Positions 44,118-47,816 are shown, counted from the first letter of the stretch. The stretch: 60,707 bases of DNA from Burkholderiales bacterium (GCA_041904885.1 JAYRND010000065.1:1-60707); one strand, 5' to 3'. A program made the numbers and translations. The notes: a model not told the origin generated them from the letters alone.

Positions 44118-47100
44118 ATGCGTCACCGCATTGAACTGCCCGCAGAACTAAGAACTGTCCTCTGGGTCACCGTCGCGATGCTCCTCTGCGCGGAGTTGCT
44201 CGGCATGCTCGGGGCGGTGGTGGCGCCGCACGCGAAGGTGGCCGCGCAGTTCTCAGGGGGAGTCGCGGCACACGACTACGGGTCCCTTGCACTTCACTTT
44301 GTACTGATGTTTGCATTCGTGGGGCCGGGCTGGAGGGCGGCCGGCTTCGTGGCGGCCGTAGGCACGATCCTGGATTTTCTTCTGTTGCAGGGTATCGATC
44401 GCCGGGAATGGGGCTTGACCAATTGGCTGAATTCGCTCGGTGGCGGATTCGGCATCACATGCCTCGCTGTGTTTGTGTGGTGGGTGCTGCGTGGCGACGA
44501 ACGCCAGCGGGCCAAGGGATCGGCCTTACTCGCGGCTTCTGCAATATTGCTGGTCTACGTGCTGTCGATCGAGGCCTACCTGCTCCTGGTCGGCCGGCTG
44601 CACCCGCAGACCTACGATTTCATCGCCTACATCATCGATGGCACTTTCGGCTTCCAGCCGAGCGAAACAGTCGCGGTAGTGGTGCGCCACCTGCTTGGAG
44701 ACGCCGGGGCGCTCAGCTTCGCCTATCGCGCATTGCCGTACGCGTTCCCCGTCCTGTTCGCATTGCAGATGCGCGCAAACGCGCGAGTTCCCGTCAATCT
44801 TTACACGATGCTGGTCACGAGCGCGCTCATCGTGCTTACGCTGTACCAGCTCTGCCCGATCGCTGGCCCGTTCTATGCATTCGGCATCGATTTTCCGCAC
44901 TCGCTTCCCGCTGCGGCGCAGCTGCCGCAGGCGCCGAGCATCGTTCCGGTACTCACCGCGCGCAATGGCATGCCCTCGATGCACCTCGGCTGGTCACTGC
45001 TGCTGTGGATGAATGCAGGCTATCTGGGACCTTGGACGCGCGCGGGTTATGCGCTACTGCTGGGGCTGACAGTACTCGCCACCCTCGGGCTCGGGGAGCA
45101 TTACCTGATCGACCTGGTCGCCGGGGTACCTGCGGCAGTGGCGTTGCAAGCGCTGTGTACGCGCGTGCTGCCTTGGGCTTCTCCGGAACGGCGCAACGCA
45201 GTGCTCGGGGGCGCGGCGCTCGTGGCGTTCTGGATCGTCGCGGTACGCTATGGGTTGCAAGCGTTCCTGCTGGTGCCGGGTCTTGCATGGCTGGCGACGC
45301 TGGGCACCATTGCCGCCTGCGTAGTGCTGTACCGGCCGCTGGCGCGTGCCACGCGTACCGCCCTGGCCGTGCCCGAAGCCCCGGTGGAGACTGCGCCGAC
45401 CGGCGCGCAGGATGCCGGCCGGCAGCGCGAGCTGCGCGCGGTAGGGCTGATGTTCGTGCTCTCGGGCTTTGCCGGCCTGGTATACCAGGTGCTCTTCTCC
45501 AAGGCGCTGGCGCTTAGCTTCGGCAGTACTGCGATCGCGACTTACACGGTACTCGCCACCTATATGGGCGGAATGGCTCTGGGAGCCTGGCTGGGCGGGA
45601 GGCTGGCGGCGCAGCGCTCCGATGCGCTCAAGCTCTATGCCTACTGTGAGCTGGGAATCGGCCTGTATTGTGCGGCCACGCCGTGGATATTCCAGGCGAT
45701 CCAGGAGCTGTATGTGGCGCTGGCCGCAGGCACCCCTCCAGAGGCAGGGGAGCTGACTGTATTGCGCGTGCTGCTCGGCGCCGGCGCACTCAGCGTGCCC
45801 ACGGTGCTCATGGGCATGACCCTGCCCATTCTCGCCCGCTTTTTCCAGAGCCGCGCCGCTTCGCTCGGCACATCCGTGGCGCTGCTCTACGGGGCGAACA
45901 CCGTGGGGGCTGCTCTGGGCGCGCTGCTGGCTGGCTACCTGATCATCCCGGCGCTAGGCGTGTACAAGACTACGCTCGCCACTGCGCTGCTGAATCTGGT
46001 GGTGGCTGCGCTTGCGTTGCGCCTTGTAGAGCAGCTGCGTCCGGAAGCACCCACTACGTTGCCCGCCGCAGCCATCGCGGCCCCGGGCGCCCAGGTCGAT
46101 CCCCAGGCGCGCCGCCTGGGCTGGCTTGCCCTCGTGCTGCTTGCGCTCGGCGGAGTGGTGACCCTGGCGCTGGAGGTGAACTACATCCACCTGCTCTCGG
46201 TGGTCGCCGGCAACAGCGTGTACGCCTTCTCCCTCATGTTGTTCGCGTTCCTGCTGGGCCTGGCTGGGGGCGCGCAGATCGCGCACTGGCTGCTCGCCGC
46301 TCGGGCGCCGCTCGCGCTTTGCCTAGCCTGGATCGAGTTCGCACTGGCCGCGGCCGTTCTGCTGGGGGTGTACCTCTGGGGCTCTTTGCCCGCGTATTTC
46401 GCGTCCTTCGCCTTCTACCCCGTGGTCGAGGCTTTCGGCACACGCGAGTTGATCCGCGGCCTGGTGTGCATGGTTGCGATGCTGCCCCCGGCCCTGGCCA
46501 TCGGCGCGCTCTACCCTCTGGCAATGGAGGCCGTCGGCCGCGCGCATCCGGCGCATCCGATCCGCGCGCTGGGCCGCGCCGCGGCGCTCAACACCGCCGG
46601 AAACATCGCAGGCGTCCTGCTTGCGGGCTTCGTGCTGCTCCCCACTATCGGCGCGCTGCGCTCGATCCAGGGCTTGGCGCTGCTCTCCCTGCTCCTGGGG
46701 GCCGCTGTCCTCGCCCTCGGTGGGGCTGGACTGCGCCACCGACTGCCGCGGACTCGCGCCGGCGCATGGGCTCCGGCCGCCTTCGTGGTGGCCCTGCTGG
46801 CCACCCAGCCGGCCAGCTTCGACTATGGCGCGCTCGCCTCGGGCGCCAACGTCTACTTCGCGCCGCAGAACTACGGCCGGGTGATCGACCACGCCGAAAG
46901 CGCCGATGGCGGCCTCACCACCGTCGTCCAGACCGAGCCGGTCAATGGACAGCGTGCGCTGACCCTGCTCACCAACGGCAAGTTTCAGGGCAGCACCGGC
47001 GGCGAAATGATCGCCCAGATCGGCTTCGCAGTGGCGCCGCTGCTGCACACCCCGGCGCGTGACCGTGCCCTGGTGATCGGCTACGGCACCGGAGTATCGT

Positions 47101-47816
47101 CGCGCACGCTGCATGAAGCGGGCTTCCAGAGCCTGGACATCGTCGAGCTCTCGGCGGACATCGTGCGCCTTGCCGACACGCATTTCGCGAGTGTCAACGC
47201 GCGCGTCAGCCAGGCCCCAGGCGTGCACACCCATATCACCGACGGCAGAAATTTCTTGCTGCTGCAGGAGCGTGCCTACGACCTCGTGAGCATGGAAATT
47301 TCCTCAATCTGGTTTGCCGGCGCTGCATCGCTCTACAACCGGGAGTTCTACCAGCTGGTCAAGCGCAGGCTGCGGCCGGACGGCGTGCTGCAGCAGTGGA
47401 TACAACTGCACCACATCGCGCCGCTGGACCTTCTCTACATCCTGGGCTCGGTGCGCGCTGAGTTCAGCCACGTGTGGCTGTATTACCTTGGTGGCCAGGG
47501 GATTATCGTGGCGAGCAATGACCCGCGTCGCCAGTCGGCGCGGGAGAATTTTCAGAAGCTGCAGGCGACGGCCACATTCGCGCCGCTGCTGCGCGAGCTC
47601 GGCGCGTCCTATGATGAGCTCGCCTCGGCCACCCTGCTTTCCCCCGCCGGCACCGAGCGCCTGCTCAACGCCTTTTCCGCGCCGGCAACGCGCTGGGTTT
47701 CGACGGACGACAACCTTTTCCTCGAATACTCCACCCCGAAAGGGAACGTACTCGACGGCGTGCAATCCCGCGACAACAATGTCGCGTTCCTCAGAAACGT
47801 GGGCGGCAACCGCTAG
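44118..47816 (+). CDS. 1232-aa polytopic fusion: PAP2-like (PAP2_3/IPC-synthase-like) membrane domain + MFS-like TM bundle + C-terminal spermidine-synthase-like domain
   Basis: PAP2 motifs are NGMPSMHLGW (aa ~284-292) and GEHYLIDLVAG (aa ~326-336). The fused-MFS/SpdS-type start LMFVLSGFAGLVYQVLFSKAL is at about aa 444. C-terminal ALVIGYGTGVSSRTL...SLDIVELSADIV...ITDGRNFL...YDLVSMEIS is the dcSAM/SAM-binding fold. Confidence 0.7.
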   Translation: MRHRIELPAELRTVLWVTVAMLLCAELLGMLGAVVAPHAKVAAQFSGGVAAHDYGSLALHFVLMFAFVGPGWRAAGFVAAVGTILDFLLLQGIDRREWGLTNWLNSLGGGFGITCLAVFVWWVLRGDERQRAKGSALLAASAILLVYVLSIEAYLLLVGRLHPQTYDFIAYIIDGTFGFQPSETVAVVVRHLLGDAGALSFAYRALPYAFPVLFALQMRANARVPVNLYTMLVTSALIVLTLYQLCPIAGPFYAFGIDFPHSLPAAAQLPQAPSIVPVLTARNGMPSMHLGWSLLLWMNAGYLGPWTRAGYALLLGLTVLATLGLGEHYLIDLVAGVPAAVALQALCTRVLPWASPERRNAVLGGAALVAFWIVAVRYGLQAFLLVPGLAWLATLGTIAACVVLYRPLARATRTALAVPEAPVETAPTGAQDAGRQRELRAVGLMFVLSGFAGLVYQVLFSKALALSFGSTAIATYTVLATYMGGMALGAWLGGRLAAQRSDALKLYAYCELGIGLYCAATPWIFQAIQELYVALAAGTPPEAGELTVLRVLLGAGALSVPTVLMGMTLPILARFFQSRAASLGTSVALLYGANTVGAALGALLAGYLIIPALGVYKTTLATALLNLVVAALALRLVEQLRPEAPTTLPAAAIAAPGAQVDPQARRLGWLALVLLALGGVVTLALEVNYIHLLSVVAGNSVYAFSLMLFAFLLGLAGGAQIAHWLLAARAPLALCLAWIEFALAAAVLLGVYLWGSLPAYFASFAFYPVVEAFGTRELIRGLVCMVAMLPPALAIGALYPLAMEAVGRAHPAHPIRALGRAAALNTAGNIAGVLLAGFVLLPTIGALRSIQGLALLSLLLGAAVLALGGAGLRHRLPRTRAGAWAPAAFVVALLATQPASFDYGALASGANVYFAPQNYGRVIDHAESADGGLTTVVQTEPVNGQRALTLLTNGKFQGSTGGEMIAQIGFAVAPLLHTPARDRALVIGYGTGVSSRTLHEAGFQSLDIVELSADIVRLADTHFASVNARVSQAPGVHTHITDGRNFLLLQERAYDLVSMEISSIWFAGAASLYNREFYQLVKRRLRPDGVLQQWIQLHHIAPLDLLYILGSVRAEFSHVWLYYLGGQGIIVASNDPRRQSARENFQKLQATATFAPLLRELGASYDELASATLLSPAGTERLLNAFSAPATRWVSTDDNLFLEYSTPKGNVLDGVQSRDNNVAFLRNVGGNR

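Follow-up and report, generated by a model that had tools for sequence, protein, structure and literature searches.

A PAP2_3, MFS and spermidine-synthase-fold fusion protein encoded directly downstream of type IV pilin genes in a Burkholderiales bacterium: a probable pilin accessory protein

Type IV pili have major roles in adhesion, motility and DNA uptake and as receptors for phages. Modifications of their pilins decide recognition by phages and antibodies. Few pilin-modifying accessory enzymes are known: TfpO/PglL, TfpW and PptA/PptB. TfpW is described as a D-arabinofuranose glycosyltransferase and oligosaccharyltransferase. The pilin of Neisseria carries phosphoethanolamine, phosphocholine and phosphoglycerol; PptA and PptB transfer the phospholipid-derived headgroup to pilin serines in the periplasm. 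PptA and PptB belong to the alkaline-phosphatase/sulfatase superfamily, not to PAP2. A pilin-accessory gene cassette, composed of a pilin gene, a Rho-independent terminator and a low-level accessory gene, is described from Pseudomonas, Dichelobacter, Eikenella and Xanthomonas; no accessory protein of PAP2, major facilitator superfamily (MFS) or spermidine-synthase type is mentioned there (PMC11841053). Described here is a gene of a Burkholderiales bacterium (GCA_041904885.1, JAYRND010000065.1:1-60707; this whole stretch of 60,707 nucleotides is called the window), located downstream of type IV pilin genes and encoding a fusion of a PAP2_3 domain, an MFS-fold domain and a spermidine-synthase-fold domain.

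The fusion is probably a member of a pilin accessory cassette with a previously undescribed kind of enzyme. As in the cassettes of P. aeruginosa, where pilA is followed by tfpO, tfpW/tfpX, tfpY or tfpZ, its gene directly follows the major pilin gene in the same orientation, with a Rho-independent terminator after the pilin gene, and genes of the TfpZ family and PglL/TfpO-like genes are often present at its loci. Unlike the accessory proteins of those cassettes, it has three domains, with predicted active sites on the periplasmic as well as the cytoplasmic side, and neither its sequence nor its fold is related to TfpO (Wzy_C/PglL type), to TfpW or to the small TfpX, TfpY and TfpZ. The reading preferred here, with a probability of roughly 45%, is that the gene fills the accessory position in a pilin-terminator-accessory cassette and that its product is an enzyme dedicated to the upstream pilins, transferring a lipid-derived phospho-headgroup. 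It is proposed because of the conserved catalytic residues, the predicted periplasmic site of transferase-type PAP2 and the cassette position.

Two major-pilin-like genes stand in tandem before the fusion (Table 1). They are 82% identical to each other. The second gene ends at 43977 and the fusion starts at 44118, on the same strand. The hairpin between them has a folding energy of -29.9 kcal/mol (z = -5.36; 0 of 200 shuffled sequences fold as well). A consensus terminator scan of this spacer gave no match; the flanking A and T runs pair, which uses up the T-tract. The original prediction placed the fusion immediately downstream of a pilin terminator. The hairpin was confirmed, and the upstream pilin is represented by two genes, not one. 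The predicted order of terminator and accessory gene agrees with the layout of the published cassette (PMC11841053). In other genomes, a terminator-like hairpin of -15 kcal/mol or lower is present in 28 of 32 pilin-fusion spacers.

The open reading frame (ORF) has the predicted coordinates and length, 1232 amino acids (aa). The window is rich in G + C and long ORFs are common on both strands, so that ORF length alone is no proof of a gene. This ORF is a genuine gene and not a spurious product of high G + C content, because homologues share its length and domains. Among 5.8 billion proteins searched, 308 are homologous at E<=1e-10; the best 120 of them are nearly all 1215-1260 aa long, carry both Pfam domains as in the fusion and are 46-89% identical to it. 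The AlphaFold2 model of aa 1-1200 has a mean pLDDT of 89.6 and a pTM of 0.87. The NCBIfam model NF037959, 'fused MFS/spermidine synthase', is matched with 88.5 bits (cut-off 40); the homologue MDD5175485.1 carries this name at NCBI, and the source annotation is 'predicted membrane-bound spermidine synthase'. The three-domain architecture belongs to a conserved, sizeable and already automatically annotated family, with over 120 homologues of nearly full length, and is not unique to the window. No study of this family or of its pilin linkage, and no characterised member of NF037959, was found by literature search. The search also gave no characterised protein with this combination of domains, in agreement with the original prediction. 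All three predicted parts are supported by profile or fold searches, and the motifs quoted for them (PSMH within aa 282-289, EHYLIDLVAG at aa 327-336, VIGYGTGV, DIVELS, DGRNF) are in the places given.

Linkage to pilins was surveyed in 185,579 species-representative genomes. A relative is encoded in 304 stretches, the best 80 of which were examined. They span Burkholderiales, Rhodocyclaceae, Oxalobacteraceae, Methylobacter, Competibacter, Acinetobacter, Moraxella, Cardiobacterium and Myxococcota. Enough upstream sequence was available for 59 full-length loci; 53 of these match the pattern RN..PS.H...H[YFW]..D and 6 are degenerate. A linked pilin was defined as an ORF of pilin size with a prepilin motif, on the same strand and not more than 1.5 kb upstream. 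Linkage is widespread: a pilin is encoded directly upstream in 38 of the 53 loci with intact catalytic motifs. The original prediction had named an architecture without pilin linkage in other genomes as a ground for refutation, and this ground is removed. Pilin-linked loci (39-60% identity) are found in all of the groups named except Myxococcota. The linkage persists to 39% identity across Beta- and Gammaproteobacteria, while other neighbours vary. The pilin-fusion order of the window is repeated at metagenomic homologues of 69%, 53% and 47% identity and is not present at one of 57% identity. Unsupervised clustering of all ORFs flanking the fusion loci gave a cluster of pilins (43 loci; prepilin motif), a cluster of a protein of about 250 aa of the TfpX/TfpZ type IV pilin accessory family (25 loci; NF041437, 241 bits) and a cluster of a membrane protein of about 576 aa (16 loci; Wzy_C, Wzy_C_2 and PglL_A), a PglL/TfpO-like O-oligosaccharyltransferase.

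The N-terminal domain is matched by Pfam PAP2_3 (PF14378) at aa 176-345 (E=8.7e-18; 65.2 bits, cut-off 27), with 181 of 190 profile positions covered. Invariant in 56 full-length homologues of 45-89% identity are R282, N283, P286, S287, H289, H328, Y329 and D332, and further P163, D167, Y203, P247, G250 and P251. The invariance holds in 31 N-domain sequences, stand-alone homologues included. The catalytic His-His-Asp triad, H289, H328 and D332, is among the invariant residues. Variants of the motifs in homologues are PSFH, PSVH and PSLH; Q, H or L may precede the second His; N-terminal extensions occur. The profile of the domain was compared with all PDB sequences. Its sole match was the inositol-phosphorylceramide synthase AUR1 of yeast (9vj3, 9ivc; E=0.007), in which both catalytic motifs pair (GMPSMH...GEHYLVDL with AFPSLH...THHYFVDL) and about 54 residues align significantly. 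The motifs K-x6-RP (C1) and SR-x5-H of the phosphatase branch (PgpB/BcrC/LpxE type) were both absent from aa 1-440. Because AUR1 is the only PDB match, the triad is conserved and the phosphatase motifs are absent, the domain is assigned by its sequence to the headgroup-transferase-like (AUR1/sphingomyelin synthase) branch of PAP2. Both the superfamily and the branch had been named in the original prediction, and the PSxH and HYxxD residues to which it pointed proved invariant.

Shared with AUR1 and the sphingomyelin synthases are the PAP2_3 assignment, the aligned PSxH and HYxxD motifs and the absence of the phosphatase C1 motif. The fusion differs in being bacterial, in its N-domain of about 12 helices, in its two further domains and in the short extent of the alignment. 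No ceramide pathway is evident for the fusion, and the proposed acceptor is a protein.

A lipid-phosphate phosphatase aiding O-glycosylation of pilin was considered, which would dephosphorylate undecaprenyl pyrophosphate from a PglL/TfpO-type transferase, or another lipid phosphate. The PAP2 superfamily includes undecaprenyl pyrophosphate phosphatases such as PgpB, BcrC and LpxT, PglL/TfpO-like genes lie beside the fusion in 16 loci, and a large polysaccharide gene cluster is located upstream in the window. This function is nevertheless improbable: K-x6-RP and SR-x5-H are missing, the alignment of N-domain homologues has no invariant lysine and a single invariant arginine, the solved structure closest to it in sequence is that of a transferase, no PglL-like gene is located nearby in the window or at most loci, and the fused MFS and synthase-like domains are left unexplained.

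Topology was predicted with AlphaFold helices taken as membrane spans and with lysine and arginine (K + R) counted per loop. Loops assigned to the inside contain 16 K + R and those assigned to the outside 7, with 6 vs 0 in the MFS part; four more are present in the segment RHRLPRTR after the last span. The hydrophobic helix of aa 877-895 is too short to span the membrane. Termini of MFS proteins are cytoplasmic by rule. Because of this, and because three AlphaFold helices lie between D332 and the K/R-rich linker leading into the MFS N-terminus, the PAP2 triad is predicted to face the periplasm, like that of other PAP2 enzymes. For the synthase-like domain a position in the cytoplasm is predicted, where S-adenosylmethionine (SAM) is available.

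Several observations weigh against pilin modification by the fusion. The link between family and pilin is one of gene position, and modification of the pilin is a proposal. No pilin is adjacent in 15 of the 53 intact loci; in 4 of these 15 a pilin is encoded at a distance of 1.8-4.7 kb upstream. Because of the phylogenetic relatedness of the loci, the linkage counts are of non-independent events. An acceptor motif common to the linked pilins was not seen, only general type IVa features. Myxococcota copies have intact motifs and no pilin nearby. With the N-domain by itself, 1591 of 1.84 billion cluster representatives were matched at E<=1e-3, and the best 150 comprise about 24 fusions of full length and about 95 proteins of 380-460 aa that stand alone. 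Those stand-alone proteins that could be placed adjoin genes of MBOAT, GDSL lipase, MacB-type ABC, FkbM methyltransferase or SDR type; three of them (P0125, P0126, P0127) were checked for pilin linkage and none has it. The pilin association thus belongs to the fusion and not to every PAP2_3 relative. Since Myxococcota fusions and stand-alone N-domains are found without pilins, the native acceptor of the PAP2_3 domain could be a lipid. The role given to the MFS and synthase-like domains is speculative.

The same observations bear on a function in envelope lipids. The AUR1-like domain would move a phospho-headgroup between lipids, the MFS and synthase-like parts would tailor or flip the lipid, and adjacency to pilins would reflect shared regulation, or a tendency of the pilA locus to act as a hotspot at which accessory DNA gathers. 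AUR1, the sole match among PDB sequences, and the sphingomyelin synthases use lipid acceptors; stand-alone N-domains adjoin MBOAT acyltransferases, GDSL lipases and MacB/FtsX ABC transporters; pilins are lacking beside the Myxococcota fusions; and lipid transporters of MFS fold are among the structural matches of the middle domain (Spns1 with lysophosphatidylcholine, Spns2, EfpA with lipids). Such a function deserves attention but is unlikely. A same-strand major pilin accompanies 38 of the 53 intact loci in two proteobacterial classes with changing other neighbours, TfpZ and PglL/TfpO genes recur at the fusion loci, and the terminator-separated layout is that of known pilin-specific accessory genes.

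The six motif-degenerate relatives (L047, L067, L078, L082, L084, L086; loci of the survey are cited by number) are five Polyangiaceae or Myxococcales and one Rhodocyclaceae. They possess a polytopic N-domain of similar size and the synthase-like motifs and have lost the PAP2 catalytic motifs. A pilin is located upstream in 0 of 6. Loss of these residues in some relatives would suit a non-catalytic pilus-assembly helper like TfpY or TfpZ, binding pilins in the membrane; TfpY/TfpZ-type proteins, whose role is assembly rather than modification, occupy the same genomic slot (PMC11841053). For the fusion this is barely credible, as the His-His-Asp and nucleotide-binding motifs are invariant in pilin-linked members and no degenerate relative has an upstream pilin.

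The middle part, originally predicted as a multi-transmembrane (TM) bundle of the fused MFS/spermidine-synthase type, is modelled as a true 12-TM MFS fold, an assignment that rests on fold comparison; the NF037959 score agrees with it. A separate AlphaFold2 model of aa 434-910 has a pLDDT of 90.8 and a pTM of 0.92. Its top 50 Foldseek matches in the PDB are all MFS transporters, covered by the alignment over nearly their full extent (probability 1.0, about 430-550 aligned columns), with TM-scores (TMq or TMt) of about 0.32-0.70 and a TMt of 0.69 for FLVCR2. VGLUT2, OxlT, FLVCR2, Spns2, MHAS2168 and EfpA are among the matches, which include lipid and choline carriers. Pfam MFS_1 has no match in the fusion at E<=1; some homologues have weak MFS_1 matches. 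A profile of the middle domain had zero matches among PDB sequences. The membrane-embedded glutamates E511 and E686 are invariant.

The C-terminal domain contains VIGYGTGV at aa 986-993, DIVELS at aa 1007-1012 and TDGRNF at aa 1041-1046. Pfam Spermine_synth (PF01564) matches aa 973-1093 (E=4.6e-9; 36.5 bits, cut-off 22.9). The top 50 Foldseek matches are all spermidine or thermospermine synthases (TMt 0.59-0.75, about 280 aligned columns). The SpeE fold is present in the AlphaFold2 model with its N-terminal beta-hairpin domain and Rossmann domain; the sole low-confidence stretch, aa 1063-1071, coincides with the mobile gate-keeping loop of SpeE. In the alignment to SpeE of Synechococcus (6qmm), the nucleotide-binding GxGxG, the acidic E1010 after beta-2 and the D1042-G1043 adenine motif are kept, whereas GGGDGG is altered to GYGTGV and the catalytic VDGSDP to MEISSI. 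The DE..YHE substrate motif of spermidine synthases is replaced. The altered motifs are family-wide, IG[YFL]GTG, TDGRN and D..S.E.[ST]SIW being found across about 70 full-length loci wherever the expression matched. Of the original prediction, an aminopropyltransferase or class I methyltransferase signature, the spermidine-synthase fold and the PF01564 match held; the residues that define aminopropyltransferases are absent. The lost Asp of GGGDG normally disfavours SAM relative to decarboxylated SAM, and putrescine N-methyltransferase, which evolved from spermidine synthase, is likewise without it. Because this SAM-excluding Asp is lost, as in putrescine N-methyltransferase, the domain is regarded, on its motifs, as a putative SAM-family alkyltransferase of unassigned specificity rather than as a spermidine synthase.

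Databases name the fusion as a membrane-bound spermidine synthase, that is, a spermidine or polyamine synthase which would be coupled to an exporter. The fold with its many SpeE matches, PF01564 above threshold and the source annotation quoted above are in keeping with the name. As a function it is very improbable. The NCBIfam equivalog models of aminopropyltransferases are all far below their cut-offs (PRK03612, 140.3 vs 472; PRK00811, 61.5 vs 260; TIGR00417, 48.4 vs 249.55), the Asp of GGGDG selecting decarboxylated SAM is threonine (GYGTG), the catalytic D-x-x-D-P reads E-I-S-S-I, DE..YHE is replaced, and neither the PAP2 domain nor the pilin linkage is explained. With the NF037959 and PRK03612-type SpeE homologues the fusion shares the NF037959 score above the cut-off and a second TM bundle and catalytic domain that align to PRK03612; it differs in the extra N-terminal PAP2_3 domain of about 420 aa.

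For the preferred reading, headgroup transfer to the upstream pilins, the following mechanism is proposed. The protein would reside in the inner membrane with about 24 helices. Its AUR1/sphingomyelin-synthase-like PAP2_3 domain, with the His-His-Asp site on the periplasmic face, would take a phospho-headgroup from a membrane glycerophospholipid, with release of diacylglycerol. The acceptor of the headgroup would be a hydroxyl, either of the pilin itself, while this is anchored in the membrane and not yet part of the fibre, or of a glycan attached to it. A supply arm may be formed by two further domains: the cytoplasmic one of spermidine-synthase fold would probably alkylate an amine using SAM or a derivative of it, and the MFS domain would move the alkylated product, or a tailored lipid, to the periplasmic leaflet.

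The proposed kind of modification is that of PptA/PptB of Neisseria. The superfamily is different, so that the enzymes would be analogous, not homologous, if the proposal is right, and the Neisseria genes are without a fused transporter or SAM-type domain. A stricter form, in which one polypeptide would be a complete make, flip and transfer line, is distinctly doubtful. Here the synthase-fold domain would alkylate a phospholipid headgroup, by methyl, aminopropyl or aminocarboxypropyl transfer to the headgroup amine or a precursor; the MFS domain with E511 and E686 would move the cationic product to the periplasmic leaflet; and the AUR1-like domain would transfer it onto the pilin. If so, a phospho-form of pilin would be made by PAP2 chemistry, non-homologous to PptA/PptB and possibly chemically new. 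A conceptual analogue only is MprF (lysyl-phosphatidylglycerol synthase and flippase), in which a cytoplasmic synthase is fused to a membrane domain that moves its product to the outer leaflet; MprF has no sequence or fold relationship to the fusion and no third, periplasm-facing catalytic domain.

If the preferred reading is true, the family would be a new and widespread class of pilin-modifying accessory enzyme with a different catalytic fold, and the fusion may reveal a new pilin modification. Carriers include environmental Beta- and Gammaproteobacteria and genera with human- and animal-associated species (such as Acinetobacter, Moraxella and Cardiobacterium). A function for the fusion would also be a first clue to what the large orphan 'fused MFS/spermidine synthase' family and the AUR1-like PAP2_3 proteins of bacteria do.

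Table 1. Features of the pilin and fusion locus, in window coordinates.
Feature	Position	Strand	Characteristics and basis
Sigma-54-type -24/-12 element	42754..42768	+	TGGCAC-N5-TTGC; upstream of pilin gene 1
Type IVa major-pilin-like gene 1	42828..43271	+	147 aa; Pfam Pilin E=9.4e-20, N_methyl E=1.5e-10; prepilin motif
Sigma-54-type -24/-12 element	43443..43457	+	TGGCAT-N5-TTGC; upstream of pilin gene 2
Type IVa major-pilin-like gene 2	43534..43977	+	147 aa; Pfam Pilin E=1.5e-18, N_methyl
Intrinsic-terminator-like hairpin	44000..44032	+	A-tract, 14-bp stem, T-tract; between pilin gene 2 and fusion; RNA folding
Fusion gene	44118..47816	+	1232 aa plus stop; ATG start; homology and AlphaFold2 model
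N-terminal polytopic domain	44118..45368	+	aa 1-417, about 12 helices; PAP2_3 core aa 176-345; Pfam PF14378
PAP2 motif C2	44961..44984	+	RNGMPSMH, aa 282-289; invariant in homologue alignments
PAP2 motif C3	45096..45113	+	EHYLID, within EHYLIDLVAG aa 327-336; aligns to AUR1 THHYFVD
12-TM MFS-fold domain	45438..46739	+	aa 441-874, 6 + 6 helices; AlphaFold2 and Foldseek
Spermidine-synthase-fold domain	46815..47522	+	aa 900-1135; altered active-site motifs IGYGTG, TDGRN, MEISSIW
Conserved C-terminal helical extension	47523..47813	+	aa 1136-1232; includes WVSTDDNLxLEYSTPKGN; AlphaFold2 secondary structure, homologue alignment

The two sigma-54-type elements are the only matches to TGGCAY-N5-TTGC in the window, where 0.24 would be expected by chance, and both precede pilin starts. 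The pair suggests RpoN-dependent pilin expression, as for pilA of P. aeruginosa. An ORF of 98 aa without Pfam match, 42265..42561 (+), lies just upstream of the pilins; its sole family match is weak and sub-threshold, to anti-sigma factors of BspR type (E=0.0096). Homologues were found by tblastn in L008 and L035, and an uncharacterised 100-aa gene is at the equivalent position in L002.

The fusion gene family is locally expanded at the pilin loci L002 and L088. Between the pilins and the intact fusion of L002 (4272-11696) there is a second copy, which is apparently divided in two, with 680 aa in the PAP2_3 part and 354 aa in the synthase part. In L088 (372-5269) a stand-alone 415-aa PAP2_3 gene directly follows the fusion. 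Beside the fusion, L009, L011, L023, L053, L060, L077 and L085 have another 'fused MFS/spermidine synthase' gene, of about 986 aa and without PAP2. Its scores for the SpeE family are stronger, e.g. 57.6 bits for PF01564 vs 36.5 for the fusion. In Sterolibacterium (L005, 11716-13368, minus strand) a 550-aa gene of the Sulfatase family (PF00884) directly follows the fusion; the Sulfatase superfamily includes phosphoethanolamine transferases of EptA/PptA type.

The ORF 14966..17347 (-) was originally predicted as a shorter paralog. It is a very distant superfamily relative; close paralogy was rejected, as the Rossmann cores are 22% identical over 117 aa and identity in one TM module is 26%. The Rossmann core of this ORF is at aa 300-420 with TM modules on both sides, an arrangement unlike that of the fusion, and it has no Pfam match. 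It is located inside a polysaccharide cluster at about 12200-35000, which contains an rmlD-containing ORF and genes of WavE, nucleotidyltransferase, ABC ATPase, GT4, GT2, GtrA and FkbM type. Surface glycans or lipids may be the general targets of the membrane-bound spermidine-synthase-like superfamily.

Other conserved partners of the fusion were rejected: GAF-ATPase, GAF-HD, phosphodiesterase (PDE), GT41, FHA and PP2C genes each occur in a minority of loci. In the window, TPR + GT41 (O-GlcNAc-transferase-like) genes flank the pilin and fusion pair at 37453..40512 (-), 40382..42229 (-) and 47832..~49877 (-). One of the three also has a GT4 domain. The mechanical ORF 47832..50861 is over-extended; the corresponding gene in L001 has 681 aa. 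The TPR + GT41 type recurs in the closer relatives L001, L002, L004 and L088, sometimes with a 2-oxoglutarate-Fe(II) oxygenase.

Further downstream are genes for a GAF-MshEN-T2SSE ATPase, 49907..51583 (-), a GAF-HD_5 protein, 51603..53975 (-), and a class II PDE/metallo-beta-lactamase, 54098..54898 (-). This cyclic-nucleotide-flavoured module recurs in L004-L006 with a CHASE2-guanylate-cyclase and a cNMP-binding-rhodanese protein. In the Myxococcota locus L043, whose upstream ORFs were rejected as pilins, a cNMP_binding-MshEN-T2SSE ATPase is encoded near the fusion. The module beside the pilin and fusion pair may be a nucleotide-regulated pilus motor. A pair of FHA-domain protein and PP2C phosphatase is encoded at 54923..55774 (-) and 55790..56614 (-). 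By tblastn FHA was found in 17 and PP2C in 16 of 80 loci, by neighbour clustering in 15 and 11 loci. Their recurrence hints at Ser/Thr phospho-signalling tied to this pilin locus in Burkholderiales.

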